Part shown: positions 6,454 through 55,544 of the stretch, one piece after another
Layout: every line of letters starts with the position of its first letter
How positions within the stretch are numbered: position 1 is the first letter of the stretch
Assembly (NCBI GenBank): GCA_951812955.1
Contig: OX638340.1
Location: 3,744,001-3,808,000 of the forward strand
Length of the DNA: 64,000 bases
Source: an uncultured Gemmatimonadota bacterium
Lineage (GTDB): Bacteria > JAAXHH01
Direction: 5' to 3'
Program-made: the position numbers and the translations under genes
Notes under the pieces: generated by a model
Told to the model about the DNA's origin: nothing
The model's database searches: none
The model's input: only the letters and a program-made list of their open reading frames with translations

Positions 6454-6470
6454 GCCATTCCTCTTCGTTT

Positions 6471-27221: not shown

Positions 27222-28733
27222 ATGGCCGATCAACCCAACATCCTCCTGATCCTGTCCGACCAGATGGTTGCCGCGCTGACCGGAACCTATGGACATCCCG
27301 TCGTCCGGACCCCTAACCTGGACAGACTGGCGGCAACCGGCGTGCGCTACGATGCCGCCTACACCGCCTTTCCGCTCTGCGCGCCCGGCAGGGCCTGCCT
27401 GATGACGGGAAGGCATGCTTCGGAAATCGGCGCCTGGGACAACGGCGCACTGCTGTCTGCGGACGAACCTACCTTTGCCCACTACCTGGCTCGTGCGGGT
27501 TACGATACCGTGCTGTCGGGCAAGATGCATTTTATCGGCCCGGACCAACTGCACGGATTCAGAAAGCGGCTGACCACCGACATATATTCCTCCGATTTCG
27601 ATTGGGTAAAGCCGGAATGGATCCGCCTGAAAGAAACCAGAGGGACGGACTTCGAGCAGGTCATGAGCAACCGACCGGCCTATAACGCGGCGGGGTACAC
27701 GGGCGACGGTGTGCGGATCGACGCCTGGCACGACGCTTTGAGTTACGACGAGGAAACCCATTTCCGCGCTATTGAATACCTGCGGGCCAGGAACTCCGGC
27801 GGGGAGGACGGCCCCTTTCTGCTCTGCGCGTCCTATCACCATCCGCACGAACCGTTCTGGCCGCCCGATGCCTACTGGAAACAGTATGAAGGGGCGGACA
27901 TCGACCTGCCCGTCTTTCCTGCCGACCTGGATGATCACCATTCCATGATGGACCTGAACCTCAACGCCTATCACGGTACCGGGTGTTACGATCTGCGGAA
28001 CGAAGAGGGCCTCTACCGGCTTCGCCGCGCCTATTACGCCCTGGTGAGCTACATGGACGACAAGGTCGGTGGCCTGCTGGACGCGCTCGACGAAACCGGA
28101 CTGGCTGAAAATACGGTGGTAGTCTTCGCCAGCGATCATGGCGACATGCTGTGCGAGCGGGGCATGGTTCAGAAACGCTGTTTCTACGAATGGTCCTGCC
28201 GGGTGCCCCTCATCGTTCGCTTTCCGGATGGATGGAGGGCGGGTACGACCTTTCCCGATCCCGTGTCGCTGATCGATCTTCTGCCTACGTTCTGCGATCT
28301 CGCGGGCGTTGAGGACCGGCTTCCCCACGACGGCCAAAGTCTCGTGTCAGCGGCCGCGGACGACGGGGACCGCGTGGTGTTCGCCCAGGCGCACGAGGCC
28401 GTGGGCATGCCCTGCATCATGGCGAGGCAGGGTCGGTACAAGTACCATTACATACACGGTTTCGCCCCTCGGCTTTTTGATCTGGACAACGATCCGGACG
28501 AATGGCATAATCTCTCGGGCGAGCACGCCGAGGACGAACACCGCCAGGTGGAAGCGCGTCTGCTCGGCCGGATCCTCGACCGGTTCGACCCGGATGCCAT
28601 TGCGGAGGAAAACCTGGACAGCCTTTACCGGCGGCGCCTGATCCGGGATACCATGTCGCGGTACGGACACACGTGGAGTCATGAGCCCGGTTTAGACCAC
28701 CGGAAGGGCGCCATGAAACAGTATTTGAGCTAG
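27222..28733 (+). CDS. sulfatase (choline-sulfatase/arylsulfatase family)
   Basis: Formylglycine motif C-A-P-G-R (LCAPGRACLMTGR); metal-binding LSDQ..; no signal peptide; alternative start 27198. Confidence 0.85.
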   Translation: MADQPNILLILSDQMVAALTGTYGHPVVRTPNLDRLAATGVRYDAAYTAFPLCAPGRACLMTGRHASEIGAWDNGALLSADEPTFAHYLARAGYDTVLSGKMHFIGPDQLHGFRKRLTTDIYSSDFDWVKPEWIRLKETRGTDFEQVMSNRPAYNAAGYTGDGVRIDAWHDALSYDEETHFRAIEYLRARNSGGEDGPFLLCASYHHPHEPFWPPDAYWKQYEGADIDLPVFPADLDDHHSMMDLNLNAYHGTGCYDLRNEEGLYRLRRAYYALVSYMDDKVGGLLDALDETGLAENTVVVFASDHGDMLCERGMVQKRCFYEWSCRVPLIVRFPDGWRAGTTFPDPVSLIDLLPTFCDLAGVEDRLPHDGQSLVSAAADDGDRVVFAQAHEAVGMPCIMARQGRYKYHYIHGFAPRLFDLDNDPDEWHNLSGEHAEDEHRQVEARLLGRILDRFDPDAIAEENLDSLYRRRLIRDTMSRYGHTWSHEPGLDHRKGAMKQYLS

Positions 28734-28816
28734 AAGGGCGGGTCGAAGCGGTCCGACTTCTCGATTCGCGGATACGAATTCCTGCCTGAGAAGGCTCGCA
28801 GGCATCCAACTGGGGG

Positions 28817-29776
28817 TTGTTCATGTTGCGCGCAGGATTCATCGGCGCCGGGGGCCGTTCCCAGAGCGCCCACTACCCGGCGGTCGAGCGGTTGCCGGAC
28901 GTCGAAATGACCGCCGTGTGCGAACTGGACGAGACGCGCCTGGCGCAGGTTACCGAACGCTACGACTTTCCGCACGTGTACACGGACCATCGCGCCATGC
29001 TCTCGGAAGTGGAACTGGACGTGATCTACTGCGTCATGCATGAAAAATGGCTGCTCCAGCCCGCCCTCGACTGCCTTCGCGCGGGCAAGCATATTTTCAT
29101 GGAAAAACCTCCCGGCGCGAACAGCGGGGAGACGAGGCAGTTGATGGACGCCGCCGTGGAACACGACGTGTACGCCATGGTGGGATATCAACGACGTTTT
29201 ACCACGGTCGTCCGTGAAGCCATGCGGCGCATACGGGAAAGAGGTCCGGTCTCCCATGCCGTGACCACCTTCAACAAGAAACTGCTTTACGACAAGCAAC
29301 CGTACTCGACGACCCTGTGGGACGACGTGACCCATGTGGTGGACCTGCTGCGGTACATGGTGGGCAGCGAACCCGTCGAAGTGACCCGTTACCGGGACAA
29401 GTTTGAATCGGTCGCCTGGAATCACTACACGGCGCTGGTCCGTTTCGCCAGCGGCGCCACGGGCGTGGTATTCGGAAACCGCGCCTCCGGCGGCCGGGTG
29501 CTGAGCGCCGAACTGCACGGCGTGGGCATCGGCTGCTACATGAAGCTGCCCGAGGAAATCGACATCCGCGAGGACGATCGCCAGACTGTCCTGCAGGGCT
29601 GGGAGATCAACGGCGATGACGCGGAAGATTCGCCCCGTTACGAGGGAGCGCTCGCCATGCACGAGCACTTCGTGGATTCCGTGCGCAACCAGACCATCCC
29701 CGTCAGCGATCTTCGTGACGTCATACATACCATCCGTCTCGTGGACTGGATCGAATCGGGGTATCGTCCCGACTAG
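28817..29776 (+). CDS. Gfo/Idh/MocA family oxidoreductase
   Basis: N-terminal Rossmann GFIGAGG; EKP motif (IFMEKPPG). Confidence 0.85.
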   Translation: MFMLRAGFIGAGGRSQSAHYPAVERLPDVEMTAVCELDETRLAQVTERYDFPHVYTDHRAMLSEVELDVIYCVMHEKWLLQPALDCLRAGKHIFMEKPPGANSGETRQLMDAAVEHDVYAMVGYQRRFTTVVREAMRRIRERGPVSHAVTTFNKKLLYDKQPYSTTLWDDVTHVVDLLRYMVGSEPVEVTRYRDKFESVAWNHYTALVRFASGATGVVFGNRASGGRVLSAELHGVGIGCYMKLPEEIDIREDDRQTVLQGWEINGDDAEDSPRYEGALAMHEHFVDSVRNQTIPVSDLRDVIHTIRLVDWIESGYRPD

Positions 29777-29906
29777 GGCGGCGTAGAATAGCGCGGCTAT
29801 CCAGTCCAATCAATGCCGACGCAAATGGCCTCAGCAGCGCACTGGCAATGGCCGCGGCAGCGCACCGAAAATGGCCGCGGCGCCCGGTCACCAGACCCTT
29901 CGCATC

Positions 29907-30365
29907 ATGCAACGGCTCAATTTTCCGGATTACGCATTTGAAATCGAATCGGACGACGCGGGCCGCAGCGTCATTTTCGACGGGGTCCGGCGCAGGTTCG
30001 TTCGCCTGACACCCGAAGAATGGGTCAGGCAGCACCTGGTGCGCTACCTGGTCGAGGACCGGGGCTTCCCGGCAGGCTGGGCGGCCGTGGAAAAAGGCTT
30101 CCAGTACGCCGGCACAGCCGTTCGCGCCGACGTGATCATGCACGATCGGGACGGCCGGCCGGTCCTGATGGGAGAATGCAAGGCGCCTGAGGTTCGCATG
30201 ACCGAAGCCGTCTTCGAGCAACTGGCCCGGTACAATTCGGTCATCAACGCCCGGTACCTGGTGGCCACCAACGGCAAGACGCACTTCTGTTGCGAACACG
30301 AGGCCGGCGGCGGATACCGCTATCTTACGGAACTGCCCCGCTTCGAGAGTGCTAGAGGAGTCTGA
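29907..30365 (+). CDS. type I restriction enzyme HsdR N-terminal-domain-like protein (PD-(D/E)xK fold), standalone
   Basis: LTPEEWVRQH..D..x..GECKAP matches the conserved standalone HsdR_N family common in Bacteroidetes; D-x(n)-E-C-K nuclease-like motif. Confidence 0.8.
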   Translation: MQRLNFPDYAFEIESDDAGRSVIFDGVRRRFVRLTPEEWVRQHLVRYLVEDRGFPAGWAAVEKGFQYAGTAVRADVIMHDRDGRPVLMGECKAPEVRMTEAVFEQLARYNSVINARYLVATNGKTHFCCEHEAGGGYRYLTELPRFESARGV

Positions 30366-30367
30366 TC

Positions 30368-31171
30368 GTGGCGGAAGGACTGATACTCGCGGCCCGAGGA
30401 TCGTTGGAACAGCGGGTCGAAGCCCTGGAACAGGAGGGTTATGTCTTCTTCCCCGGTGTACTCTCCGGAGAAGAGGTCGCCGAACTGCGATGCGCCATCG
30501 ACCGGCTTGAAGCCCGTCCCGAAGAATACGACCGGCATACAAACCCCGAGACCCACGGGTTTCTGAACAAGTCCATCAACAATGTATTCAATCGCGACTC
30601 CGTATTCCTGTCCTTCCTGGACCGTCCGGACGTCATAGACGTGGTCGAAGCCGCCCATGGACCGGACTGTCACGTCATCGGCATGACGGCGTGGATGACG
30701 GGCCCCGGCCGGCCGGACCAGGGCATCCACGTGGACTGGCAGCCGCTGGAACTGCCCGAAGACGTCATGGACGATCCGCGAGTCGAGGTGCCCGTTTACA
30801 TCTCCACGGTTCACTATTACCTGGACGATCTCTACGAGGCCCTGGGACCCACCCAGTTCATTCCAGGCAGCCATCGGGCCGGCCGCGTACCCGCCACCGG
30901 GGAATCCGCCTGGCGCGGAGTCGAACCCCGCAGCATCATCTGCTCGGCCGGAGACGCCGTCCTGTTTCGCTGCGAGGTCTGGCACCGCGGGACGGCTAAC
31001 ACGAGCGACCGGGTGCGCTACCTGCTCCAGGTCCACTACGCACAGCGCATGATCACGCAGAAGTTCCCGCCCTACCTGAACCGGTTCCGGTTCGACCCGG
31101 TCATCCTGTCCCGCGCCACGGACCGCCAGCGCCGGCTGTTGGGCGAGCACGTGCAGGGCAATTACGACTGA
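30368..31171 (+). CDS. phytanoyl-CoA dioxygenase (PhyH) family Fe(II)/2-oxoglutarate oxygenase
   Basis: HVDW (HxD) and VWHRG (distal His) motifs; GTG start with GAGGAG SD. Confidence 0.8.
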   Translation: MAEGLILAARGSLEQRVEALEQEGYVFFPGVLSGEEVAELRCAIDRLEARPEEYDRHTNPETHGFLNKSINNVFNRDSVFLSFLDRPDVIDVVEAAHGPDCHVIGMTAWMTGPGRPDQGIHVDWQPLELPEDVMDDPRVEVPVYISTVHYYLDDLYEALGPTQFIPGSHRAGRVPATGESAWRGVEPRSIICSAGDAVLFRCEVWHRGTANTSDRVRYLLQVHYAQRMITQKFPPYLNRFRFDPVILSRATDRQRRLLGEHVQGNYD

Positions 31172-31200
31172 TCCACGACATTCATTCAGGAGGAACCCAG

Positions 31201-32187
31201 ATGAAATTCATCAGATTCAGCGTCGTTTTCCTGTTCACAGCCGTTTTCGTTCTCCAGGCCGCCGCACAGACGCGAGAGCAGGGACCTTGGTGGCCCCATC
31301 CCATCTGGGGCAAGGACGACCAGTCGGGCGGCTCCAACTGGATAACGCCCGAAAAAGTGCTGAAGGCCCTGACCCTGGTCAAGACGGGCCAGATCTACGA
31401 AATCGGCCAGGTGTACAGCGCGGACATGCCTCTCTTCGGCGACCGGACCTATTCCATGGTAATGCCGGGGTCTCCCACGGGCGAACCCATGGGCGATAAC
31501 AACCTGGTCTATTACGACGAGTTCCTGGTGGCCGAAATCGGCCAGGTCGGCACGCAGTTCGACGGACCGGGCCACATCGGCGAGCGGATCACGATGGCGG
31601 ACGGAACGGAAAAGGACGTTTTCTACAACGGATTCACCAATGAGGAGATCAAGGGACCCTACGGACTCGCAAAGCTGGGCATCGAGCACATCGGACCCTT
31701 CATCACCCGGGGCATCCTGGTCGACGTGGCCGCGTTCAAGGGCGTTGAATCCCTCGACCACGGTTACGAGGTCACGGTGGCGGACGTCGAAGACGCGCTG
31801 CAGCGCCAGGGCATTGCGATGGAAAGTCTGGAGCCGGGAGACGCCTATTTCTTCCGTTACGGCTGGGCGCGGCACTGGAACGACCACGACAAGTACAACA
31901 CCGATCCCCCGGGCATCGGCATGGAAGTCGCCCGGTGGGTGGTCGAGAAGCAGGCTTCGATGATCGGTTCGGACCAGTGGACGACCGAGGTGGTGCCCAA
32001 TCCGGATGCCGGCCAGGCCTTTCCGGTCCACCAGGAACTCATCACCCGGAACGGCGTATGGAACCTCGAGAACATGAACCTGGACGAACTTTCGGGCGAC
32101 GGCGTCTACGAGTTCCTCTTCATTCACACGCCCATTCGATTCAAGGGTGCGACGGGTTCGCCCGCCCGCCCGATCGCCATCAGGTAA
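31201..32187 (+). CDS. cyclase family protein (kynurenine-formamidase-like), secreted
   Basis: Signal peptide; HxGxH-type motif (FDGPGHIGE) typical of the putative cyclase family; AGGAGG SD. Confidence 0.8.
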   Translation: MKFIRFSVVFLFTAVFVLQAAAQTREQGPWWPHPIWGKDDQSGGSNWITPEKVLKALTLVKTGQIYEIGQVYSADMPLFGDRTYSMVMPGSPTGEPMGDNNLVYYDEFLVAEIGQVGTQFDGPGHIGERITMADGTEKDVFYNGFTNEEIKGPYGLAKLGIEHIGPFITRGILVDVAAFKGVESLDHGYEVTVADVEDALQRQGIAMESLEPGDAYFFRYGWARHWNDHDKYNTDPPGIGMEVARWVVEKQASMIGSDQWTTEVVPNPDAGQAFPVHQELITRNGVWNLENMNLDELSGDGVYEFLFIHTPIRFKGATGSPARPIAIR

Positions 32188-32214
32188 TAACCACGCCGAC
32201 GAAAGGAGCGGAAC

Positions 32215-32991
32215 GTGACAGCATTCGAAGGAAAAGTGGTCATCGTGACAGGGGGCGCCAAAGGTATTGGCGGCGGCATCGTCCGCGCCTTCGCCGGTGA
32301 GGGGGCGCACGTCCTTTGCGCCGATATAGACGACGATGCAGGTGCGGAGATCGTCGCATCCAGCGACCGGATCCGCTACGTCCACGCCGACGTGACCACG
32401 AGCGAAGTATGCCGTTTCCTGGTGGAGACCGCGATGGAAGCCTGGGGAGGCGTCGATATACTCTGCAACAACGTGGGGATACAGCCGACGTCGAGCTATC
32501 TGCCCGCTCACGAAATGTCCGAAGAGCAGTGGGACCGGATCATAAATGTCAACCTGAAGAGCCGATTCCTGATGGTCAAATACTGCGTTCCCGTGATGAA
32601 ACAACGCGGGGGCGGCGTGATCATCAACACGGCGAGCGTTCAGGGACTGCAGTCGGCGAAGGGTATATCAGCCTACGCGGCGAGCAAGGGGGGCGACCTG
32701 TCACTGGTGCGTCAACTTGCCTTGGATTACGCCGAGGACAATATCCGCGTGGTGGCGGTCAACCCGGGCACCATCGAAACGCCCCTCCTGCAGGAGGCCA
32801 TCGATTCGATCGGCGGCGCCGAGGACGAAATCCGGACAGATATGGCTTCCCGGCACGCCGTGAACCGGCTCGGCAGTCCGGAGGATATTGCCAATGCCGT
32901 GCTGTTCCTGGCCAGTGACCGGGCCTCCTTCATCACGGGTGAATACGTGAACGTGGACGGGGGACTGATGGCTCGGGGGGCGTGGGCCTAG
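32215..32991 (+). CDS. SDR family oxidoreductase
   Basis: TGGAKGIG cofactor motif, NNVG, YAASK catalytic triad region. Confidence 0.85.
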   Translation: MTAFEGKVVIVTGGAKGIGGGIVRAFAGEGAHVLCADIDDDAGAEIVASSDRIRYVHADVTTSEVCRFLVETAMEAWGGVDILCNNVGIQPTSSYLPAHEMSEEQWDRIINVNLKSRFLMVKYCVPVMKQRGGGVIINTASVQGLQSAKGISAYAASKGGDLSLVRQLALDYAEDNIRVVAVNPGTIETPLLQEAIDSIGGAEDEIRTDMASRHAVNRLGSPEDIANAVLFLASDRASFITGEYVNVDGGLMARGAWA

Positions 32992-33227
32992 GGGGGTGTA
33001 ACAAAGCTACTGCGGTACATGCTGCTATAGGAGCATTACAAGAAAACTCGACGTGAAGCCGGCACATTCCCCATTCTTGGATCACGTTTGTTTTTTTCAT
33101 TCGAGAAACCCGCAGTGATTCCGACTGAGGAAGAAACCGGTTCAGATGCGGATAGGAAATCGCAATCCGAGCGCTGTGAAAGTTTCGTCAGTACGATGAA
33201 TACATTTTAGCGTAGGAAAGTTAGGAT

Positions 33228-33347
33228 ATGAGCGTCGAGTTGATCGGGATAATCAGTATGGGCGTTGCCCTGGCTGGACTTATTCTGGCGTCTAGGCGGG
33301 ATATCAATCTCCGTCCTGTATCCCTGGAACAGGGCAGGCAGACCTGA
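33228..33347 (+). CDS. possible small hydrophobic peptide (39 aa) in AT-rich island
   Basis: ATG preceded by GGAAAG; MSVELIGIISMGVALAGLILASRRD.. is a single TM-like helix followed by a basic patch; could be a non-coding artefact. Confidence 0.2.
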   Translation: MSVELIGIISMGVALAGLILASRRDINLRPVSLEQGRQT

Positions 33348-33390
33348 GAGAGCGTATGGCAAGACTGGATGAGATGCTGGAAGGACGATT

Positions 33391-34248
33391 CTACACAACA
33401 CGTTGATCAGCTCGTAATTGTCTTTTTGCAGCGATGCGTTTGCGCCTGAGCATCCCAGCCCAATACTGAATCCCGCTATCCTTAGATTCCCTTGCACACC
33501 TCCGCACTGCAGCACGAAGCACTTTATTATTCTTAAGGTTTTCGATGACTTCTAGTCGTGGGCGAACGGGTCCACGACTTAACCACTCCGCTGCGTCCCA
33601 CGCCGGGTCAAGTTTGCTCTCGGCCGATATTGCTTTTCTAGCCTCTTCCTCGATTCGGTGGTTTATGTCTTTTGGGGTCCAACTGAATATGAGCGACAAT
33701 AGAGCACGTATAATCTCACGATAGACATAGCCAATCATTGGTTCGGCAGTGTTGTTACGACCCTCGATACTTTCGTACCTTTTTGCTACAAAGACTTCGG
33801 CTTTGCCATGTTCCTTAAAATAGTCAACAATATTTGTGTTGGGCTGGATGGACGTGACGCTTTCCAGATATTGGATGGTGCTGTCGAAACATCGCTCCAG
33901 TTCATTAAATGCCGTTATGTTGTGCTTTTGAACATCCGCCAACAGTAGATGTAGTTTGTGCCCACGAGAACGAACCTGATTCTCTGACAGGCCGCCGTCT
34001 ATCAGAATCGCCTTTAGGCCCTTCTCGATTGCTTCGTGAGCATTCTTGGTGTCCGCCCTGATCCTTGCCTTTGAGTATGCTGTGGAGAGTAGTCCAATCT
34101 GAAGGAGTCTTTTGAAGAATTCATCTTCAGATTGTGCATCTAAGTTTGCTGCATCAGTCAGGCGACTATGGATATCGCGCGACGGTCTATCCAGTTCATC
34201 GAGGGCATACCTTAGGTCTGCCCATACGTCTTCCTTTTTTAACGACAT
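33391..34248 (-). CDS. hypothetical protein with HEPN-like motif (R-x4-H), AT-rich island
   Basis: 285 aa, Lys/Glu-rich, lower-GC codon usage; segment EAIEKGLKAILIDGG...RSRGHKLHLLL resembles the HEPN Rx4-6H helix; family not verifiable without search. Confidence 0.5.
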   Translation of the reverse strand: MSLKKEDVWADLRYALDELDRPSRDIHSRLTDAANLDAQSEDEFFKRLLQIGLLSTAYSKARIRADTKNAHEAIEKGLKAILIDGGLSENQVRSRGHKLHLLLADVQKHNITAFNELERCFDSTIQYLESVTSIQPNTNIVDYFKEHGKAEVFVAKRYESIEGRNNTAEPMIGYVYREIIRALLSLIFSWTPKDINHRIEEEARKAISAESKLDPAWDAAEWLSRGPVRPRLEVIENLKNNKVLRAAVRRCARESKDSGIQYWAGMLRRKRIAAKRQLRADQRVV

Positions 34249-34421
34249 TTTAATGCCTGCCTTTCAGCACACACAGAACAGATCCACTTGTTGTCAAGAA
34301 TGATCAGACTTTCTACAGTCTTCTCTTTGTCCAATTCGTGGTTTGCAATTGATTTCAGGCTGCGGCAAGGCATACCTGAACAGCCGTGAAACGCCCATTG
34401 GCTAAAATCCGAAATAACCAC
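34239..34421 (-). CDS. small Cys-rich protein (putative zinc-ribbon), translationally coupled to downstream HEPN-like gene
   Basis: 60-aa ORF (GTG start; internal ATG gives 44 aa) with C-x4-C ... C-x2-C; its stop overlaps the next gene's start (ATGTCGTTAA). Confidence 0.35.
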   Translation of the reverse strand: MVISDFSQWAFHGCSGMPCRSLKSIANHELDKEKTVESLIILDNKWICSVCAERQALKCR

Positions 34422-34606
34422 GATTCAATAGCCTGGCCTTATGCCGCACAGAATAGATAGATCCGGATTAGACCCTGGAATCTGACAATGAGTTACTAGT
34501 CAGGGCGGGATTGGTGCTATCGAAACCGCTGCCGATCATTCTTCATCACGGGTGTATTCGTGGACGTTAACAGGGACTTGATGGGATGGTCCGCAAGCAC
34601 GTGGGC

Positions 34607-35368
34607 CTAGGCCGGCTCGTCGCTGTCCTTCGACTTGAAGATGCGCAGGAGCCGGTTGAGGGGGTCGTAGAACTCGCCGACGACCCTTTCCTTCAGGGGA
34701 ATGATGGCGTTGTCCGTGATCGTGATCTCTTCGGGACAGACGTTGGTGCAGCACTTGGTGATGTTGCAGTAGCCGATGCCCTGGTCGTCCTTGAGGTCGC
34801 CGAGGCGGTCCCCGGTGTCGAGGGGATGCATCTCCAGGGCGGCGTTGTGCACCATGAGGCGCGGGCCGATGAACTCCTCGTGCAGGTCATGCTCCCGCAG
34901 GACGTGACAGACGTCCTGGCAAAGAAAGCACTCGATGCACTTGCGGAACTCCTGCACCCGCTCGATATCTTCCTGGTCCATGCGCCAGGTACCGTCCTCG
35001 GCGTCTGGCTTGCGGGGCTTGAAGGGCTTGATCTTTTCCTTCGCGCGGTAATTCCAGGACACGTCGGTGACCAGGTCCCGTATCGTCTTGAAGGCCTTCA
35101 TCGGCTCGATCGTGATGGCCTCGTCCTCGGGCAGGTCGCTCATCCGCGTCATGCACATCAGCTTCGGGTTGCCGTTGACCTCGGCGGAACAGGAGCCGCA
35201 CTTGCCGGCCTTGCAATTCCAGCGGACCGCGAGGTCCGGGGCCGATTCCGCCTGGATCTGGTGCACCGCGTCCAGCACTACCATGCCTTCGTCGATCTCG
35301 GTGGAGTAGTTCTCGAAATCGCCGGTCTCACCATCGCCTCGCCAGATTCGGAAGTTGGCCGTCGCCAT
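34607..35368 (-). CDS. sdhB: succinate dehydrogenase/fumarate reductase iron-sulfur subunit
   Basis: 2Fe-2S (CKAGKCGSC), 4Fe-4S and 3Fe-4S cysteine clusters (CIECFLCQDVC, CTNVCP). Confidence 0.9.
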   Translation of the reverse strand: MATANFRIWRGDGETGDFENYSTEIDEGMVVLDAVHQIQAESAPDLAVRWNCKAGKCGSCSAEVNGNPKLMCMTRMSDLPEDEAITIEPMKAFKTIRDLVTDVSWNYRAKEKIKPFKPRKPDAEDGTWRMDQEDIERVQEFRKCIECFLCQDVCHVLREHDLHEEFIGPRLMVHNAALEMHPLDTGDRLGDLKDDQGIGYCNITKCCTNVCPEEITITDNAIIPLKERVVGEFYDPLNRLLRIFKSKDSDEPA

Positions 35369-42987: not shown

Positions 42988-43032
42988 GGTTCCCTCGATT
43001 CGAAATACATGGTGAACGGTACGAATGTCCCG

Positions 43033-43201
43033 AGCGGCCGCACGATCGGGAGTGCCCGTACGACCGGGAGTGCCCGTACGACTAGGAGTACCCGCGAGAT
43101 CGAGATCGGCCGCACGATCGGGAGCTGTTGAACGATACAGGCGTGCCCGCGCGATCAAGCGCGACAGCGCGATCAAGCGTGACAGCGCGATCGGGATCGA
43201 C
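43033..43201. repeat. intergenic compound tandem repeat (18-bp units: cgaYcgggagtgcccgta x3; cgcgatcaagcgYgacag x3; ggccgcacgatcggg x2)
   Basis: Directly visible; between the TIM-barrel isomerase stop and the SDR start. Confidence 0.85.
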
Positions 43202-43217
43202 TACGCCGGGAGCGGTT

Positions 43218-45433: not shown

Positions 45434-45679
45434 GCATGGGAAAGCGTAGAACGAATTGCCAAATTAGCGTCCCACAAGCGGATTGTCACGCAGATTCTAC
45501 CCGCCCTCCCGGTCCAATTGGCGTTGCCATGCGTCCGCCCCATCCCGTATATTGTCACCCGCGACACCGGTGGAATGGCTAGTGTGCCCGCCCGGTGCAT
45601 CGGGACGAGTGAATCCGACCCGTTAAGAACAGATTGGTGTACGGACCCATGTCGACGGGCACTGGAGGGGACTGGCGTT

Positions 45680-47778: not shown

Positions 47779-47788
47779 TGAAGCCGGA

Positions 47789-49135
47789 GTGCGTAAGATG
47801 AACATCCGAATACTTACTGCCGAAGAGGCCGTGACGGGCATCCTGAAGCGGCGGCCGTTGAACGAGGCCATGTCGGCTGCCGGGATCGAAGAACGGAACA
47901 GGGAACTGTTCGGCAAGGCCCTGACGGCGGAACAGGCCGTAGCGACCATAATCGACGATATTCGAAAGAGCGGGGACGATTCGGTAAGGCACTACGCCCG
48001 GTTGCTGGATGGGCAGGCACCATCTGCCCTCGAAGTCCCGCGGAGCGAGATCGACGAGGCGGCGGCATCGCTGCCTTCCAGTTTGCGTGATGCGCTGGAA
48101 ACGGCGGCCGAACGCATCCGGTCGTTTCACGAAAAGCAAACGTTCGAGTCCTGGACGCACTGGGACGAAGAGGGCGGTACCGGACAGATCGTGCGGCCGC
48201 TGGACCGGGTCGGCGTCTACGTACCCGGCGGCGGGGCCGCCTATCCATCCTCACTGCTGATGGCCGTGATCCCCGCCCGAGCGGCCGGAGTCCGGGAGGT
48301 CGTCGTGGCCACGCCCCCAGGAAGGGACGGAGCTGTACCGTCCGCGGTTCTGGCCGCTGCTTCCGTGGCGGGTGCCGACGCGGTATACCGTATCGGAGGT
48401 CCACAGGCGATCGCGGCGATGGCCCATGGTACCGAGTCCATTTCACGCGTCGACAAGATCGTGGGTCCGGGTAATGTATTCGTGACCCTGGCCAAGCGCC
48501 AGGTGTACGGGATCGTGGACATCGACCAGCTGGCCGGTCCCACTGAAACCCTGCTGATCGCCGACGATACGGCCAGTGCGGAATTAGCGGCGGCAGACCT
48601 GCTGGCGCAGGCCGAACACGATACCATGGCGAGCGCCATACTGATCACGCCGTCGTCCGGGCTGGCCCTGGCGGTGCAAAACGCCCTGGATGAACAGTTG
48701 GCCGAACTGGACCGGGCGGAAATAATCCGGTCCTCCCTGCAACATAACGGAGGGATCGTGCTGGTCTCGAGCCTCGAAGAAGCGGTTGAACTGGCAAACG
48801 CCTACGCACCGGAGCACCTGTGCCTGCTCGTCGCGGATCCATGGACCCTTGTGGACAGCATCCGGCACGCCGGGGGAATCTTCGTGGGAGAACACTCTTC
48901 AGAGGCCCTGGGGGACTACGTCACCGGACCGAGCCATATCATGCCCACCGGGGGCAGCGCCCGTTTCCATTCTCCCTTGAGTGTGCGCGATTTCCTGAAG
49001 ATCACCAGCCTGTTCGCGGTCAATGAACTGGCTGAGAAAAGGTTGGGACCTACCGCAATCAGGCTGGCGGAAGCAGAAGGCCTTTCGGCCCACGCCATGG
49101 CCATACGAAGAAGACGCTCAAGCGACCGAGACTGA
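47789..49135 (+). CDS. hisD: histidinol dehydrogenase family protein (HisD-like; true hisD vs paralog such as sulfopropanediol dehydrogenase unresolved)
   Basis: Aligns by eye with E. coli HisD motifs (GGPQAIAAMA, AQAEHD, GPEHL, GDY..GPSH..PT); 10 nt after the DUF1611 gene. Confidence 0.8.
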   Translation: MRKMNIRILTAEEAVTGILKRRPLNEAMSAAGIEERNRELFGKALTAEQAVATIIDDIRKSGDDSVRHYARLLDGQAPSALEVPRSEIDEAAASLPSSLRDALETAAERIRSFHEKQTFESWTHWDEEGGTGQIVRPLDRVGVYVPGGGAAYPSSLLMAVIPARAAGVREVVVATPPGRDGAVPSAVLAAASVAGADAVYRIGGPQAIAAMAHGTESISRVDKIVGPGNVFVTLAKRQVYGIVDIDQLAGPTETLLIADDTASAELAAADLLAQAEHDTMASAILITPSSGLALAVQNALDEQLAELDRAEIIRSSLQHNGGIVLVSSLEEAVELANAYAPEHLCLLVADPWTLVDSIRHAGGIFVGEHSSEALGDYVTGPSHIMPTGGSARFHSPLSVRDFLKITSLFAVNELAEKRLGPTAIRLAEAEGLSAHAMAIRRRRSSDRD

Positions 49136-49146
49136 CGCTTTCCGTA

Positions 49147-49304
49147 CCGGCCGGGATGGCCTCACACCGCCCGGCCGGGATGGCCTCACACCGCCCGGTT
49201 CGCCCACCGCCCGGCTCGCCCTGCCCACCAGCCCGGTTCGCCCACCGCCCGGCTCGCCCTACCCACCAGCCCGGTTCGCCCACCGCCCGGCTCGCCCTGC
49301 CCGC
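49147..49304. repeat. intergenic compound minisatellite (24-bp unit x2, then 38-bp unit x ~2.8)
   Basis: ccggccgggatggcctcacaccgc x2; ccggttcgcccaccgcccggctcgccctgcccaccagc x3 (last truncated); between convergent hisD-like and HpcH genes. Confidence 0.9.
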
Positions 49305-50059
49305 TACCTTCCGACTTCGGCGAGGGCCGCCTGGGCCGCCTGAGCCAGGAAACCCATGTCGCTCCCTAGGGTGATCCACTGGAATCCCTCCGCGATGCGC
49401 TTCCTGTTGATGTCCATCGTGGTGGAAGCGTAACCGCCGGGCACGCCGAGTTCCTTCGCCCGGTTTATGATCCCCTCGACCACCTTTTCCACTTCGGGAT
49501 GGACCGGCTCACCCACGTAGCCGTGTGACGCCGCGAGATCGTTCGGTCCGACCAGGAACGCGTCGACGCCAGGGGTGGTAAGTATCTCATCCAGGTTCTC
49601 GACGGCCTCGACGGTTTCGATCTGGACCATGATAAACGTTTCCTCGTTGGCGGTACGGAGGTATTCTGCCAGGTCCTGACCCGAGATGTTGAGGAAACGG
49701 GCGCCCATGCCGCGAATGCCCATGGGCGGATACTTGGCCGCGCGGACCGCATATTCCGCCTGCTCCCGGTTGTTGACCCAGGGGATGATCAGGCCCTCCG
49801 CACCGATGTCCAGCGCCTTCTTGATGTGCACCATGTCGTTCCAGGGCACGCGGACGAGGGGCGTGACGTCCCGGCCCCGGGTCGTCTGGATCATGGGATG
49901 GAGCATTTCCGTGTTCGTGGGACCGTGTTCGGCGTCGAACCAGATCCAGTCGAAGGGAAGGTTCGCAACCAGTTCCACGATGTCGGTACAGGGTGTTCCG
50001 ACGGATACGCCATAGGTCACTTCGTCATTGCGCAGCTTTTCCTTAAGCCGGTTCTTCAT
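49304..50059 (-). CDS. HpcH/HpaI family 2-keto-3-deoxy-sugar-acid aldolase
   Basis: Pyruvate/PEP-utilising TIM barrel with metal-binding E/D; start at MKNRLKEKL (50059) with AGGAG SD; the ORF-track 5' extension is unsupported. Confidence 0.85.
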   Translation of the reverse strand: MKNRLKEKLRNDEVTYGVSVGTPCTDIVELVANLPFDWIWFDAEHGPTNTEMLHPMIQTTRGRDVTPLVRVPWNDMVHIKKALDIGAEGLIIPWVNNREQAEYAVRAAKYPPMGIRGMGARFLNISGQDLAEYLRTANEETFIMVQIETVEAVENLDEILTTPGVDAFLVGPNDLAASHGYVGEPVHPEVEKVVEGIINRAKELGVPGGYASTTMDINRKRIAEGFQWITLGSDMGFLAQAAQAALAEVGR

Positions 50060-50249: not shown

Positions 50250-51104
50250 ATGATAAAAAACACGCTCATTCCTTCGCTGAAGGCCATCATCCTGGCGGTG
50301 TCAGCGATCACCTTCGCCGCCACCGCGCTGTCAGTCCATGCGCAGCAGATACCCTACGCACCGACGTCCGAAGGCCAGATTCCGGAAGCGATACTCGGCA
50401 AGGCCGGCGCGCCCCGCGGCAGCGGCCTGGCCTATTTCGATGAAGATCCGGCTACAATGGGTTACCTCGCCGAACCGGATGGACCGGGTCCACGGGGTGC
50501 CGTCATTTTGATCCATGAGTGGAACGGGTTGGTGGACCGCGTGAGACAGGTGGCCGATGCCCTGGCGGCGGAGGGCTACGTCGCCCTGGCGGCGGATCTG
50601 TATTCCGGGCGCACGGGGAGCAACCGCGACGAGAACATGGCGCTCGTTCGCGAAACGCTGGGAGAGATGGACAAGATCATCCGTAACCTGGACGCGGCGG
50701 CGGCCTATCTGAGAGGAAGGACGGATGTAAACGGCAAAATCGCAGCCATGGGCTGGTGCTACGGCGGAGGGGTCGCCCTGAGCTATGCCCTGGGCGGCGA
50801 GAACCACGATGCCACCGCCATCTTCTACGGACGACTGCTCGACGATCCCGAAAGACTCAGTGCCATACATCATGAAGTCTATGGCACCTTCGCCGGACTC
50901 GACCGTGGTCCTTCGCCCGAACAGGTTGGACGGTTCGTCGCCGCGCTTCGCGAAGCCGGCGTGGAGAACGACGTGCACATCTACGACGACGTCAACCACG
51001 GGTTCTGGCTGTACGTGGACCGCGACCCGAATAACGAGGAACCTGCGCTGGACGCATGGGAGCGGCTGAAGGACTATCTCAAAAGGACCATAGGAAGCGA
51101 CTGA
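50250..51104 (+). CDS. dienelactone hydrolase family protein, secreted
   Basis: Signal peptide; catalytic Cys in GWCYGG nucleophile elbow, Asp and His (DDVNHGF) triad; GAGGAG SD. Confidence 0.8.
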   Translation: MIKNTLIPSLKAIILAVSAITFAATALSVHAQQIPYAPTSEGQIPEAILGKAGAPRGSGLAYFDEDPATMGYLAEPDGPGPRGAVILIHEWNGLVDRVRQVADALAAEGYVALAADLYSGRTGSNRDENMALVRETLGEMDKIIRNLDAAAAYLRGRTDVNGKIAAMGWCYGGGVALSYALGGENHDATAIFYGRLLDDPERLSAIHHEVYGTFAGLDRGPSPEQVGRFVAALREAGVENDVHIYDDVNHGFWLYVDRDPNNEEPALDAWERLKDYLKRTIGSD

Positions 51105-51850
51105 TGGATGCTTTCGACCAGGCCTTAGCCGAAATCGAGACCTTCGGGTTTACGCTGTTGCCCGACGTATTGACGGCGAATCAGGCAGGAGCATTGCGCG
51201 AAGCCTTGATCCGCGTAGCGGAAGAAAATGGCGAGGCAGGTTACGAGAACCGGGGGGGCACGTCGCTGCTGGTTCGGAACCTGCCCACCCTGGATCCCGT
51301 GTTCCTTCAGATCGTCGACCACCCGGTCGTTCTGCCCATCCTGGAGCGGATGCTCGACAAGACCCTGGTGCTGGGCAGCCTGAGTTCCCGGATCGTCCGG
51401 CCCGGAGACGGTTACCAGGACCTCCACAGCGACATTCCTCGGCACATGTTGAACCCCATCTCCCCGGTTATGATGAACACCGTCTGGATGCTGGATGATT
51501 TCAACGCGGAGATCGGTGGCACGCGCATCGTTCCGGGTTCGCACAAGAGCGGATGGGCGGGACCGCCTGATGGCATGGAGGTGCCGCACGTGTACCAGCC
51601 CGAGGCCTCCGCAGGCAGCGTGCTGATTTTCAACGGCCAATGCTGGCACGGCGGCGGCGCCAATACTTCAGACCGAAGCCGCCACGCTCTTTTCGGGCAC
51701 TACCGCAAGTCCATGCTCCTCTTTCAGCTCGATCCGCACGACGGTTTTCGGGACGAGTGGTTCGAAGGACTGTCTTCCCGCCAGAAACAGCTCATGCGCA
51801 TGCAGAAGGGGGTCGGCGCACGTCACGCGGCGGATGATCACCTGCTGTAG
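51104..51850 (+). CDS. phytanoyl-CoA dioxygenase (PhyH) family protein
   Basis: HSD (HxD) and CWHGGG distal His; ATG overlaps the upstream stop (TGATG). Confidence 0.8.
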   Translation: MDAFDQALAEIETFGFTLLPDVLTANQAGALREALIRVAEENGEAGYENRGGTSLLVRNLPTLDPVFLQIVDHPVVLPILERMLDKTLVLGSLSSRIVRPGDGYQDLHSDIPRHMLNPISPVMMNTVWMLDDFNAEIGGTRIVPGSHKSGWAGPPDGMEVPHVYQPEASAGSVLIFNGQCWHGGGANTSDRSRHALFGHYRKSMLLFQLDPHDGFRDEWFEGLSSRQKQLMRMQKGVGARHAADDHLL

Positions 51851-51939: not shown

Positions 51940-52362
51940 ATGGCGAATTCATCACAATCAGATCAACTGGAAGAGGGAACGCAAGAGGTCCTGGATTTCT
52001 CGAAACTCCGGCAGATAGCCGGCATCGAAGAAGAGGTCCTGCCGGTCGTCGTCCAGGATTCGGCAACGAAGGAAGTACTGATCGTGGCCTATGTCAATCG
52101 CCTGGCCCTGGACGAATCCCTGAAGACCGGTATCGCCACGTTCTGGAGCACTTCGCGGAACGAACTGTGGATCAAGGGCGCCACGTCGGGAAACGCCCTG
52201 CGCATCGATGAAATCCGCATCAACTGCGAGCAGAACTCCGTGTTATTCCTTGTAACGCCCCAGGGTTCCGGGGCATGTCACACGAAGGACAGTGACGGCC
52301 GTTACCGCACCGGCTGCTATTACCGCCGTATGAGGTCATCCGGAGAACTTGAGTTCGTCTGA
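51940..52362 (+). CDS. hisI: phosphoribosyl-AMP cyclohydrolase (HisI, standalone)
   Basis: LPVVVQD, WSTSRNELWIKGATSGN, C..C-HT zinc site consistent with the HisI fold. Confidence 0.8.
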   Translation: MANSSQSDQLEEGTQEVLDFSKLRQIAGIEEEVLPVVVQDSATKEVLIVAYVNRLALDESLKTGIATFWSTSRNELWIKGATSGNALRIDEIRINCEQNSVLFLVTPQGSGACHTKDSDGRYRTGCYYRRMRSSGELEFV

Positions 52363-52387
52363 ACGATTATTCCGACTCAACGACGCA

Positions 52388-52421: not shown

Positions 52422-52517
52422 GAACACGCCTCAAAAATACCCTGCTATTTCGGAATATGGTCCAAAACAGTACGAAGGCGACTCCGATTTTCGAGAACCA
52501 GCAGGGCGGTTCCCCGC

Positions 52518-53258
52518 CTACCCCCCGAAAGCCTCCATGTAAAGCCTGGTGCGCTCGTTCAGGACGCCGTAGAAGGCGCGGGTCTCCGGGTCTTCGCTGT
52601 CCCGCCAGAAGGTGGCGGGAATCCCGGAATCGTTGGCCAGGGGATCCCGGTCCCGGTGGCCGTAGTAGATCTGTGCGGTCTTCCGCACAGCCCGCGTGGG
52701 ACGCGTGGTCGCCGTGTGGAGCACCGATACGTTGAACAGAGCGCAGGTACCCGCCGGTCCGTGGAGGTCGTAGACGCCCCGCTCCAGTTGCGCGCTGTTC
52801 TCCTTCAGTACGGGCTGCTCGATCCCTTCGGGCGAAAGGGAAAAACAGTGGGTGCGCTCATCCACGTCGGTTAAATAGACGATGAGCTGGATGTAGTCCA
52901 TGCGCAGGGGATGGTCGAACCAGTGGGCTTTGTCGCGGTGCCACCGCTGGTGGAGCGCGCCCTTGTATGGCCCCATGGACCGCAGCCCGATTTCCCCGAA
53001 ACAGAGCGGACCGCCCATCAGTTCCTGTATGGTCCCGTAGATGGCGGGATGGCGGATCAGTCCGTCGAATACCGGCGTGGTGATGAGCGCGTCGTAGTTG
53101 GCCTCCTGGTGATGCCCGTAAGGATGCCAGAAATAAGGGAACCGGCGGCGGTCTTCATCGAATAGATCCCGATAATGGTCCACTTCCTCGTTCGAGAGGA
53201 CCTTGCCCAGGTTGATGAATCCGTTCTGACGAAAGAACGCCAGGTCAGACTGCTTCAT
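52518..53258 (-). CDS. phytanoyl-CoA dioxygenase (PhyH) family protein
   Basis: WHRD (HxD) iron site and distal His; double-stranded beta-helix pattern. Confidence 0.75.
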   Translation of the reverse strand: MKQSDLAFFRQNGFINLGKVLSNEEVDHYRDLFDEDRRRFPYFWHPYGHHQEANYDALITTPVFDGLIRHPAIYGTIQELMGGPLCFGEIGLRSMGPYKGALHQRWHRDKAHWFDHPLRMDYIQLIVYLTDVDERTHCFSLSPEGIEQPVLKENSAQLERGVYDLHGPAGTCALFNVSVLHTATTRPTRAVRKTAQIYYGHRDRDPLANDSGIPATFWRDSEDPETRAFYGVLNERTRLYMEAFGG

Positions 53259-53432
53259 GAGAACCTTTCAGGTGAGTATTTGTGCTCCGAATCCCGGTCC
53301 TTATGAATCCCCAATCTTCCGGCTCCCGATTCATCCGAATCTCGGCTCTACCAACTGTCCCTGGTTCTTTCAATTGCCCGGGCATTTCAAACCTCTTCCG
53401 GTGTTTCCAGTGGTTCAGGATATCCCCATCGC

Positions 53433-54137
53433 TCACACCGACCGCGTTATGCCCCCGTCGACGCGCAGGTTCTGGCCCGTGATATAGCCCGAACCGGGTG
53501 ACAGCAGGAATGCGGCCGTTGCCGCGATCTCCTCCACCGTGCCGTAGCGTCCCATTGGAATGCGCGACCTGAATGCTTCCGATTCGGGGAGACTGTCGAT
53601 GAATCCCGGCAGGAGATTGTTCATCCGGATGTTGTCGCCGGCGTGGTTGTCGGCATAGATCTTCGAAAAACTCGCCAGGGCCGCTCTGAAAGGCGTCGAA
53701 ACCGGGAAGTAATGCTCCGGTTCGAAGGCGGCGAAGGTGGATATGTTGACGATCGAACCGCCGCCCTGTTCCACCATGATCGGGGTGACCAGGCGCGCCA
53801 TGCGCACCACATTGAGAAACACGATATCCAGTCCCTCGTGCCAGTCTTCGTCCGGTATATCCAGCAGGCTGCCCTTAGGCGGATGGCCGGTGCTGTTGAC
53901 GACGCCATCAATCCGGCCGTGGGCTTCCATGGTCAGGTCCACCAGCTTTCGCAGGTCGGCTTCGTCCGTGACGGAGCCCGTCACGCCGATGCCTCCCAGT
54001 TCACTTGCGAGTGATTCCGCCGCTCCGGAGGGAGACAGCAACGCGACGGCCCACCCTTGTCCGGCCAGGTTGCGCGCGATGGCCGCTCCCATGCCCCTTC
54101 CCGCTCCCGTGATGACCGCTACTTGTTGCGAACTCAT
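53433..54137 (-). CDS. SDR family oxidoreductase
   Basis: TGAGRGMG cofactor motif; classic SDR length. Confidence 0.85.
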   Translation of the reverse strand: MSSQQVAVITGAGRGMGAAIARNLAGQGWAVALLSPSGAAESLASELGGIGVTGSVTDEADLRKLVDLTMEAHGRIDGVVNSTGHPPKGSLLDIPDEDWHEGLDIVFLNVVRMARLVTPIMVEQGGGSIVNISTFAAFEPEHYFPVSTPFRAALASFSKIYADNHAGDNIRMNNLLPGFIDSLPESEAFRSRIPMGRYGTVEEIAATAAFLLSPGSGYITGQNLRVDGGITRSV

Positions 54138-54449
54138 AACTCTCCCTTCGGCGTATTGACCGTTTTAAGCCATGCAGGATGTCGCTGGAACGATTTCGGC
54201 TCGTCTCCATGCAGATTCGATATCTGTTGATGTAGACGCACGTCTCGAACATGGCGGTATATAAACAAATGCATTGCAGTAATCAATGGGAGAATATAGC
54301 GTTAATCCGGTTAGCACCGATCCGGTTCAGCAGGAGCGAATCCCGGCGATTCATCGGTTAACGGGCCGGTTTCGAGTCGCAGACCGCATTGGGACCCACA
54401 TCGTGTGAACAATTGCGACCGCAGTATATCACATACCGCAGGACGGCAC

Positions 54450-55544
54450 ATGAAGATAACCGGACTGAAAACCCACTCCGTCCACGTGAATCACCGGGGA
54501 GACTGGACGTTCCTGGCAGTGCTCACGGATGAAGGAATAACCGGTTTCGGCGAGGTGAATCCCGGAGGGGCCCGATCCGGGAGCGTGGACTTCCTGCAAC
54601 AAGCCGAACCGGTTCTCGCAGGTCGCGACCCCGGCAGCATCGAACGCATCCTGGCCGAACTCCTGCCTTCGCCCACCGACCGGTCTAAAGTAATGGCCCT
54701 GAGCGCCCTCGACCAGGCCCTGTGGGACATCAAGGGCAAGACCCTGGGCGTGCCCGTGGCGGACGTCATCGGGGGACGATGCCATGATGAGATTCCCCTT
54801 TATGCCAACATAAACCGGGCTACGACCGACCGGACGCCCGCGGGGTTCGCCCGGAACGCGGCCGCCGCGGTTTCGGATGGATTCGACGCCGTAAAACTGG
54901 CCCCCTTCGACGGGATGCCAGGCGGGATCGACCGGGCCTCCGACGCCCGCGAAGGCATTGCCTGCATGGAAGCGGTGCGTGAAGCGATCGGTCCGGAGGT
55001 CTCCCTGTTGATCGACTGCCACAGCCACTTCTCCGCCCGGGGCGGGTGCGAGGTATTCGACGCCCTCAGGGACCTGGACCTTTACTGGTACGAGGAACCC
55101 GTGCCCGATGAAGACCACGAGGGCTACCGGGCCATACGGGATCATATCGACGTGCCGCTGGCCGGAGGCGAAAGCCTGATGTACCTGGAGGGGTTCTGGC
55201 CCGTGGTGGACCAGGGTCTGATGGACGTCATCATGCCGGACGTGACGATCGTGGGCGGACTGTGGGAACTGAAGAAGGTCGCCGCCATGGCTGAAGGCAG
55301 GGGGATTCCCACCGCGCCGCACGGACCCTTCGGACCTTTGACCATCGCGGCAGGCGTTCAGGCCATGGCCGCCCATCCCCGCTTCCAGATTCTGGAATAC
55401 GCCTGGGGGGAGGTGCCGTGGCGGCACGAATTGATCGTACCGCCGGAGCGGATCGAAGACGGCAGGATCCGGGTATCGGACCGGCCCGGTCTCGGTGTCG
55501 AACTGAACATGGAAGCCATCGACGCGTACCGGGTAGACCGGTAG
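54450..55544 (+). CDS. enolase-superfamily enzyme (mandelate racemase/muconate lactonizing, sugar-acid dehydratase-like)
   Basis: Capping domain plus TIM barrel with KxK, D, E, D metal ligands (LIDCHS.., YWYEEP, LAGGES); start at MKITGLK. Confidence 0.85.
   Translation: MKITGLKTHSVHVNHRGDWTFLAVLTDEGITGFGEVNPGGARSGSVDFLQQAEPVLAGRDPGSIERILAELLPSPTDRSKVMALSALDQALWDIKGKTLGVPVADVIGGRCHDEIPLYANINRATTDRTPAGFARNAAAAVSDGFDAVKLAPFDGMPGGIDRASDAREGIACMEAVREAIGPEVSLLIDCHSHFSARGGCEVFDALRDLDLYWYEEPVPDEDHEGYRAIRDHIDVPLAGGESLMYLEGFWPVVDQGLMDVIMPDVTIVGGLWELKKVAAMAEGRGIPTAPHGPFGPLTIAAGVQAMAAHPRFQILEYAWGEVPWRHELIVPPERIEDGRIRVSDRPGLGVELNMEAIDAYRVDR

Follow-up and report, generated by a model that had tools for sequence, protein, structure and literature searches.

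The window analyzed here is a 64,000-nucleotide stretch of contig OX638340.1 from an uncultured bacterium, and our subject is its 28-kb region at positions 27222–55544, which a first-pass annotation had taken for one oxidative catabolic neighborhood. Our results suggest that the region is probably a mosaic, conserved within the lineage, that comprises at least nine transcription units and does not form one pathway, with two sulfatase-linked modules lying among housekeeping genes and unlinked enzymes of expanded families. The two small modules would break down low-molecular-weight sulfate esters in the cytoplasm: module A, with the composition (SULF1)-GFO1-HSDR_N_2-(PhyH1)-cyclase-SDR1, and module B, composed of SULF2, a TIM barrel, SDR2, and DUF6785b and divergent from GFO2-DUF1611-hisD. 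The second component would be the housekeeping genes sdhCAB, hisD, and hisI, and the third would be lone members of lineage-expanded superfamilies (HpcH, DLH, PhyH2, PhyH3, SDR3, and an enolase-superfamily protein). The main value of this interpretation is corrective, as the seeming super-cluster devoid of transporters and regulators would be the patchwork expected in sulfatase-rich genomes of the PAUC34f type.

Gene content and conservation of the 28-kb region

Genes were called from codon-position GC, and the approximately 58 products of the window were scanned against Pfam, the key products also against NCBIfam. Pfam found the two formylglycine-type sulfatases, the three PhyH proteins, the cyclase, the HpcH aldolase, the enolase-superfamily enzyme, the TIM barrel, and the dienelactone hydrolase family protein (DLH) that had been listed in the first-pass annotation. 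The counts of three Gfo/Idh/MocA (GFO) proteins and four SDRs had to be corrected to two (28817–29776 and 45680–46711) and three (32215–32991, 42208–42987, and 53433–54137), respectively. The described interruptions by an AT-rich island, sdhCAB, and a pair of membrane proteins are all present, the pair being DUF6785/DUF6784 proteins. The HSDR_N_2, DUF1611, hisD, and hisI genes of the Pfam map had been omitted.

The listed families account for 15 of the 25 genes inside the region and for 0 of the 33 elsewhere in the window (Fisher p=1.1e-7), and thus the local enrichment is real. With a rough background of 16/87 genes, counted in related lineages at unrelated loci, a binomial test gave p=4.6e-6. 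The description of the region as paralog-rich holds at the superfamily level; it does not extend to local duplication, since members of the same family within the window are only 20–36% identical. The rest of the window is almost entirely housekeeping (plsC, purC, mfd, surA, holB, metG, tatD, ksgA, pdxJ, secDF, uvrC, rpsT, and pyrG).

A scan of a genome collection with the DUF1611 protein returned relatives in 17 species-representative metagenome-assembled genomes (MAGs) with 86–97% identity, labelled Latescibacterota or Gemmatimonadota, several of which have chromosomes of 3.7–3.9 Mb. Their isolate names include APA_bin_41, SB0665_bin_8, and Plut_88884, which we take to be sponge or coral bins. 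The source of the window is probably an uncultured marine member of the Latescibacterota of the PAUC34f type, a lineage that either is sister to the Latescibacteria or falls within them. A planctomycetal origin (Planctomycetota), which the mix of families had brought to mind, was rejected on the result of the genome scan, and a look-up of one window protein by exact sequence gave no record. PAUC34f genomes are enriched in sulfatases (PMC7081726), and one PAUC34f bin carries 102 sulfatases, annotated as ‘arylsulfatase A’ or ‘choline-sulfatase’, together with 42 galactonate-type dehydratases (PMC5596340). In Poribacteria, a related sponge phylum, more than 1.9% of the genes encode PhyH proteins of mostly unknown function (PMC3909097). 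These published expansions indicate that the family mix of the region is a lineage trait. The region resembles the genomes of PAUC34f/Latescibacterota, Poribacteria, and Planctomycetota that have no PUL (polysaccharide utilization locus) but are rich in sulfatases. In these, many Cys-type sulfatases occur in the company of expanded families of dehydratases, SDRs, and PhyH proteins, without SusC/D and with housekeeping genes interspersed (PMC5596340, PMC7081726, PMC3909097). It differs from them in that small modules could be delimited by comparative genomics and tied to DUF6785/DUF6784 proteins, which are undescribed in those papers.

The conservation of gene order was examined in loci fetched from relatives (denoted by L and a number). 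At 76–98% identity, the genes from sdhC to uvrC were all collinear in 16 species, the housekeeping genes included, and in L024, where the cyclase is 86% identical, collinearity extended from tatD to DUF6785b. Collinearity at 76–98% identity says nothing about function. At approximately 78–79% identity (L026, L027, and L029), the order was kept and SULF2 was present, but SULF1, PhyH1, and the AT-rich island were absent. At 57–75% identity, the region breaks up and two modules are retained. The view of one coherent neighborhood is not supported, given the at least nine transcription units delimited by strand switches and gaps and the presence of sdhCAB, hisD, and hisI inside the region. Moreover, relatives at approximately 60–70% identity carry the enolase gene on a separate contig and have sdhCAB in a non-adjacent place.

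These data bear on the proposal that the entire 28 kb forms a single catabolic locus or regulon dedicated to one substrate, which would be sulfated or branched-chain and isoprenoid-like, with hydroxylation by the PhyH enzymes as the key step and with the regulator and transporter encoded elsewhere. The local enrichment of the families (15/25 vs. 0/33) and the collinear arrangement in 16 related species speak for it, as does the finding that PhyH1, PhyH2, and PhyH3 all keep the HxD iron motif. The three proteins, however, are only 21–28% identical to one another and belong to PF05721 at family level (46–80 bits). Their matches in the PDB were weak and to natural-product dioxygenases (DhiD, SptF, AndA, KanJ, and SnoK; E 1e-11 to 5e-3), and phytanoyl-CoA hydroxylase (PHYH) was not among them. 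Pfam detected no CoA ligase, lyase, acyl-CoA dehydrogenase, hydratase, or thiolase in the window, and genes for acyl-CoA metabolism are missing there. The earlier suggestion of isoprenoid or branched-chain degradation was thus not borne out. The single-locus proposal is also opposed by the dispensability of SULF1 and PhyH1 in relatives at approximately 79% identity, by the interspersed sdhCAB, genuine hisD, and hisI, by the alternating strands of the transcription units, whose promoter regions have no 11-mer in common, by the separation of the enolase ortholog and sdhCAB in the more distant relatives, and by the presence of candidate transporters after all. We regard it as very unlikely.

Modules A and B and their sulfatases

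SULF1 (27222–28733, plus strand; PF00884, E 5e-49) precedes module A (28817–32991, plus strand), in which GFO1 (28817–29776), the HSDR_N_2 gene (29871–30365), PhyH1 (30368–31171), the cyclase gene (31201–32187), and SDR1 (32215–32991) follow each other with gaps of 94, 2, 29, and 27 bp. The GFO1-HSDR_N_2-cyclase-SDR1 core was kept at 62–83% identity in L026, L037, L039, L040, and L041, the last two having been recovered in a metagenome scan with the cyclase (65–72% identity). The presence of PhyH1 and of a sulfatase around this core varied among the relatives. L037/L039 showed a co-directional array of DUF6785/6784, amidase, GFO1, HSDR_N_2, PhyH1, cyclase, sulfatase, SDR1, FGE-sulfatase, Exo_endo_phos, GNAT, and DUF6785 genes, and the order in L028 was sulfatase-cyclase-sulfatase-SDR. 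Across the loci of the relatives, the place of the recurring sulfatase in the cyclase module varies among three positions. In L037, the sulfatase is followed by the SDR1 ortholog, and directly after it lies a gene for an FGE-sulfatase maturase (9173–9976; PF03781, E 1e-50), from which it follows that sulfatase maturation in relatives takes the aerobic FGE route. The cyclase carries a predicted signal peptide, and the search of the PDB with it returned only the uncharacterized 5ibz and gave no functional lead.

As far down as 62% identity, every relative has a standalone HSDR_N_2 gene for approximately 150 residues in the interval from GFO1 to either the cyclase or the PhyH1 gene (L037, 4203–4649; L026, 9409–9858). 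In type I restriction enzymes, the HSDR_N_2 domain makes up the N-terminal part of the R subunit and has a nuclease fold.

The minus-strand unit of module B (40248–45388) contains SULF2 (43991–45388; PF00884, E ~1e-48), the AP_endonuc_2 TIM barrel (43218–43994), SDR2 (42208–42987), and DUF6785b (40248–42179), which closes the SULF2-TIM-SDR2 unit and follows SDR2 after a 28-bp gap. In the divergent plus-strand unit (45680–49135), GFO2 (45680–46711) overlaps the DUF1611 gene (46708–47778) by 4 bp, and hisD (47789–49135) follows after a gap of 10 bp. L018 retains DUF6785b-SDR2-TIM, with MFS_1 replacing SULF2, divergent from GFO2-DUF1611-hisD-[Ldh_2]-HpcH-PhyH at 57–70% identity (GFO2-DUF1611-hisD, 57–64%; HpcH, 65%), and this block is flanked by genes for hypothetical proteins and not by sdhCAB and DUF6785a.

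Formylglycine (S1, type I) sulfatases are recognized by the PF00884 domain and a C/S-x-P-x-R motif, both of which are present in SULF1 and SULF2. The motifs are of the Cys type, CAPGR in SULF1 (C61) and CSPSR in SULF2 (C69). The two proteins are from different subfamilies. SULF1 is BetC-like, its best solved match being BetC (6fny; 274 bits, full length), and SULF2, a predicted cytoplasmic protein, has its closest matches in GlcNAc-6-sulfatase and in enzymes that desulfate mucin. No signal peptide was predicted in SULF1 or SULF2, suggesting that their targets would be small molecules brought into the cell and not polymers of the periplasm or the cell surface.

Choline-O-sulfate utilization involves betC together with betI, betB, and betA in Sinorhizobium. 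SULF1 (as a 511-residue open reading frame from 27198) reached the cutoff of the choline sulfatase model TIGR03417 only borderline, with 433.8 bits vs. 433.45, and resembles that system further in its match to BetC. Unlike the bet genes, the window is devoid of a GMC oxidoreductase, an aldehyde dehydrogenase, and a TetR regulator (BetA, BetB, and BetI, respectively), the neighbors of SULF1 are unrelated to betaine synthesis, and SULF1 behaves as an accessory gene that is missing in relatives at approximately 78–79% identity.

The sulfated-glycan PULs of Bacteroidota also place sulfatases beside sugar-modifying enzymes, and SULF2 is nearest to the GlcNAc-6-sulfatase of B. thetaiotaomicron (5g2v). 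In contrast with those loci, the region lacks SusC/SusD, a regulator, and a glycoside hydrolase, and its sulfatases have no signal peptides. The view that it is not a classical PUL is thereby upheld. At Pfam thresholds, no SusC/SusD, ABC or MFS permease and no HTH, ECF or HTCS family protein was found in the whole window, in agreement with the first-pass annotation, and the GH5 gene, correctly named as the sole glycoside hydrolase, is a weak match to PF00150 (33 bits) at 5461–6489, approximately 21 kb away.

The possibility exists that there is no functional linkage and that the region samples a genome with massively expanded sulfatase, SDR, GFO, PhyH, TIM, and enolase families and weak operon structure, in which gene order reflects ancestry only. 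The lineage-wide expansions documented in the literature (PMC5596340, PMC7081726, PMC3909097) are in line with this explanation, as is the housekeeping gene order that is conserved alongside the catabolic genes. Two sulfatases in 25 genes have a p value of ~0.08 when 1.9% of the genes encode sulfatases, and approximately 18% of the genes in unrelated loci from related lineages are of the families in question. However, the genes of four pairs overlap or lie at most 30 bp apart (SULF2/TIM, GFO2/DUF1611, HSDR_N_2/PhyH1, and DLH/PhyH2), module B outlasts the replacement of its flanks in L018, and the in-window enrichment is pronounced (p=1e-7). Sulfatases have also joined the cyclase module independently, each time in another of three places, and the occurrence of FGE and DUF6785 in the L037 array likewise argues for linkage. 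The absence of linkage is therefore rather improbable in our view, though less so than a single 28-kb locus.

The claim of a sulfated substrate is plausible for the two sub-modules on the basis of the Cys-type sulfatases without signal peptides, the recurrence of sulfatases in module A of the relatives, and the FGE gene in L037. A GFO-HSDR_N_2-cyclase-SDR module that repeatedly gains cytoplasmic sulfatases, and FGE in one relative, points to the uptake and intracellular desulfation of small sulfated compounds and not to extracellular attack on polysaccharides, and it could be a useful lead for studies of sponge symbionts or of marine organic matter.

The hisD product scored 514.5 bits against TIGR00069 (cutoff 243.8) and 364 bits against HisD (4gic) vs. 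237 bits against HpsN (8v35), which marks it as a genuine histidinol dehydrogenase. An HpsN-like sulfonate dehydrogenase, a candidate prompted by the Ldh_2 neighbor in L018, was ruled out by the far higher HisD scores. The hisI gene for PRA cyclohydrolase (PRA-CH; 51940–52362, plus strand) lies 2.8 kb downstream of hisD on the same strand, with HpcH, DLH, and PhyH2 between them. The GFO2-DUF1611-hisD arrangement could be what is left of a his cluster after the intrusion of other genes, or the linkage could be genuine, though unexplained.

In D-glutamate catabolism, DgcN is a DUF1611 acetyltransferase and DgcA an enolase-superfamily racemase, and proteins of both kinds are found in this neighborhood. 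The DUF1611 protein is DgcN-like, but its score of 284 bits with the DgcN model is below the cutoff of 480, and the search of the PDB with it gave no functional lead. The enolase-superfamily protein reached 27 bits vs. the DgcA cutoff of 400 and has acid-sugar dehydratases as its nearest relations. The distance between the DUF1611 and enolase genes is approximately 6.7 kb, and their linkage is not kept in relatives.

DUF6785/DUF6784 proteins as candidate transporters

DUF6785a (38253–40211, plus strand; PF20581, E 7e-110, and PF20580, E 3e-19) and DUF6785b are membrane proteins that are 36% identical to each other. An AlphaFold2 model of DUF6785b, built from an alignment of 47 sequences, had a pLDDT of 85.3 and a pTM of 0.87. 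When the model was compared with the PDB by Foldseek, the sole significant match was the barley Yellow Stripe 1 (YS1) transporter of the OPT family (7wsr; E 2.5e-7, probability 1.0, TM 0.58–0.65). The fold was modelled for DUF6785b, and that of DUF6785a is extrapolated from this paralog. The predicted fold of DUF6785b is thus common to a solved member of the OPT/Yellow Stripe-like family, in contrast to the sequence identity of 9–13% and to the genomic context, which consists of catabolic enzymes and not of genes for peptide or metal uptake. Together, these predictions make the DUF6785/DUF6784 proteins strong candidates for secondary transporters. The statement that the region has no transporter signature is accordingly true only insofar as Pfam calls the family a DUF. 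Other transport-type genes in the window are SecDF, an orphan SBP_bac_3 gene (61282–62079), and PTS EIIA-2 (7913–8422).

At other loci, DUF6785 homologs adjoin SDR, TIM, GFO, PhyH, and further catabolic genes. Homologs with 52–53% identity are each preceded by two tandem genes for NtrC-type sigma-54 response regulators (L020/L021, 5960–9188; L022, 257–3455; L022/L023 come from a Zixibacteria-labelled MAG), an arrangement that suggests sigma-54-dependent regulation of DUF6785 genes outside this lineage. No counterpart of these regulators or of sigma-54 promoters was found in the window. A search for TGGCAC-N5-TTGCW with at most two mismatches gave 16 matches vs. 22.7 expected, none of them in the relevant intergenic regions. 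No paper mentioning DUF6785 was found in the literature searched.

A tentative extension of these findings is that DUF6785/DUF6784 proteins may form an unrecognized bacterial branch of the OPT superfamily. They would constitute the uptake part of non-PUL modules for small compounds, sulfated or otherwise decorated and including host-derived ones, in Latescibacterota/PAUC34f, in Gemmatimonadota-labelled MAGs, and in one Zixibacteria-labelled MAG. Sulfatase, FGE, PhyH, and amidase genes would be added according to need to a conserved GFO-HSDR_N_2-cyclase-SDR core, and paired sigma-54 response regulators would control the system in some lineages. A predicted OPT-transporter fold in combination with catabolic neighbors in several phyla makes the family a useful lead for the metabolism of sponge symbionts and of marine organic matter.

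In the mechanism that we favor for modules A and B, DUF6785/DUF6784 permeases with the OPT fold would import small sulfated organic compounds, and the Cys-type formylglycine sulfatases, having no signal peptide, would take off the sulfate. The carbon skeleton would then be oxidized or rearranged by NAD(P)-dependent GFO and SDR enzymes, a TIM-barrel isomerase or dehydratase, and an Fe/2OG dioxygenase. The gene content, the lineage, the synteny patterns, the modelled transporter fold, and the type and likely location of the sulfatases come from the analyses themselves, and the substrates, the direction of transport, and the co-transcription of the genes are what we infer.

Several observations weigh against the mosaic with sulfate-ester modules. 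The Pfam search gave no OPT family match for the DUF6785 proteins even at E<=10, and to our knowledge the cargo of the OPT family is peptides or metal chelates and not sulfate esters. Module A is approximately 5 kb away from the nearest DUF6785 gene of the window, with sdhCAB between them, and there was no gene for an FGE or anSME maturase in the Pfam scan of the 64-kb window. The cyclase and DLH have signal peptides and the sulfatases do not, so that module A mixes cell compartments. A substrate cannot be named, and the PhyH, cyclase, TIM, and enolase proteins have no characterized close homologs. The hisD gene stays with module B even at 60% identity. In addition, the 16 closest relatives keep the order of the housekeeping genes as well, and much of the conservation could thus reflect inheritance and not selection. 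Finally, the source organism is placed by MAG labels and literature and not by a marker-gene tree.

Single enzymes, the AT-rich island and intergenic sequences

The genes of the right-hand part of the region are HpcH (49304–50059, minus strand), encoding a class II pyruvate aldolase of the HpcH/HpaI type (PF03328, E 3e-34), DLH (50250–51104) and PhyH2 (51104–51850), both on the plus strand, PhyH3 (52518–53258) and SDR3 (53433–54137), both on the minus strand, and the MR/MLE enolase-superfamily gene (54450–55544, plus strand; PF13378 and PF02746). HpcH is monocistronic, and its product scored below the cutoffs of the HpaI and GarL models, with 4b5s as the best solved match (178 bits). DLH has a predicted signal peptide. 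It abuts or overlaps PhyH2, as it does in L029, and hisI follows PhyH2 on the plus strand. A homolog of PhyH3 with 73% identity was found in an unrelated context in L020. The solved matches of the enolase-superfamily protein were uncharacterized MR/MLE proteins, and it resembles acid-sugar dehydratases.

A non-phosphorylative sugar-acid pathway, similar to the routes for L-rhamnose, L-fucose, or galactonate, would offer an explanation for this part, with SDR3, DLH as lactonase, the enolase dehydratase, and the HpcH aldolase corresponding to the order dehydrogenase, lactonase, acid-sugar dehydratase, and 2-keto-3-deoxy-acid aldolase. Galactonate/gluconate dehydratase models indeed come closest to the enolase member (E 1e-65), the keto-deoxy-acid aldolases HpaI, GarL, and YfaU come closest to HpcH, and the SDRs resemble glucose or rhamnose 1-dehydrogenases. 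Every equivalog score was, however, far below its cutoff, as were the NCBIfam equivalog scores of the enolase, HpcH, TIM, and GFO proteins in general. The genes are in four separate units approximately 5 kb apart, and DLH is predicted to be exported. The enolase ortholog of the relatives (~60–65% identity) occurs without these partners, on a contig different from that of HpcH. In L032 (65% identity), which is from the sample that also yielded L018, it lies beside SEC-C, GGT, and 2-Hacid_dh, on a contig other than that of the module B block, with no SDR3, PhyH3, or HpcH adjoining, and L033 agrees with this. A pathway formed by SDR3, the enolase protein, and HpcH was rejected, as the genes are not co-conserved, and a sugar-acid route through the right-hand part is improbable, more so than the absence of linkage. 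The mosaic reading accommodates these enzymes as unlinked members of expanded families.

The sdhB (34607–35368; Fer2_3/Fer4_8), sdhA (35368–37182; FAD_binding_2/Succ_DH_flav_C), and sdhC (37182–37985) genes on the minus strand encode a housekeeping succinate dehydrogenase or fumarate reductase. The 267-residue product at the sdhC position has no Pfam match but is retained by all relatives.

The AT-rich island (32992–34606) has a GC content of 0.44–0.51 vs. approximately 0.62 and contains one open reading frame of 285 codons (33391–34248, minus strand), whose product gave only a weak HEPN match (E 0.008), no homolog in the fetched loci, and no plasmid match. The island is absent from L026, L027, and L029 (~79% identity), and 158 bp of it (33228–33384) are common to L024. 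It is a variable insertion hotspot outside any catabolic module.

No 11-mer was common to the intergenic promoter regions, and the sole 11-mer found in two intergenic gaps, which is GC-rich, joins a tandem-repeat gap and a 3'-end gap; there is no evidence of a common operator. The scans for sigma-70 promoters and terminators showed no excess over shuffled controls; a sigma-70-like site is present at 45524–45553 in the divergent gap between SULF2 and GFO2. Rfam at gathering thresholds gave 0 matches in the window. GC-rich tandem repeats with periods of 18–60 bp occupy gaps at 27025–27190, 29823–29881, 43038–43094, 43149–43192, and 49147–49302. Owing to such repeats, the gap between the TIM barrel and SDR2 is approximately 190 bp longer than the approximately 42 bp of the relatives, and the repeats produce a spurious N-terminal extension in the longest-open-reading-frame version of SDR2.

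Elsewhere in the window, an open reading frame for 644 residues (3456–5390, plus strand) has a strong coding signal (GC3 0.84) and no Pfam match at E<=0.001, and the same holds for the Pfam search with a 178-residue frame (1576–2112, plus strand). The secD and secF genes (24773–27039) overlap by approximately 150 nucleotides in the longest-open-reading-frame listing. Since they are abutting genes for 514 and 282 residues in the relatives, this overlap is a start-codon artefact and not a frameshift.

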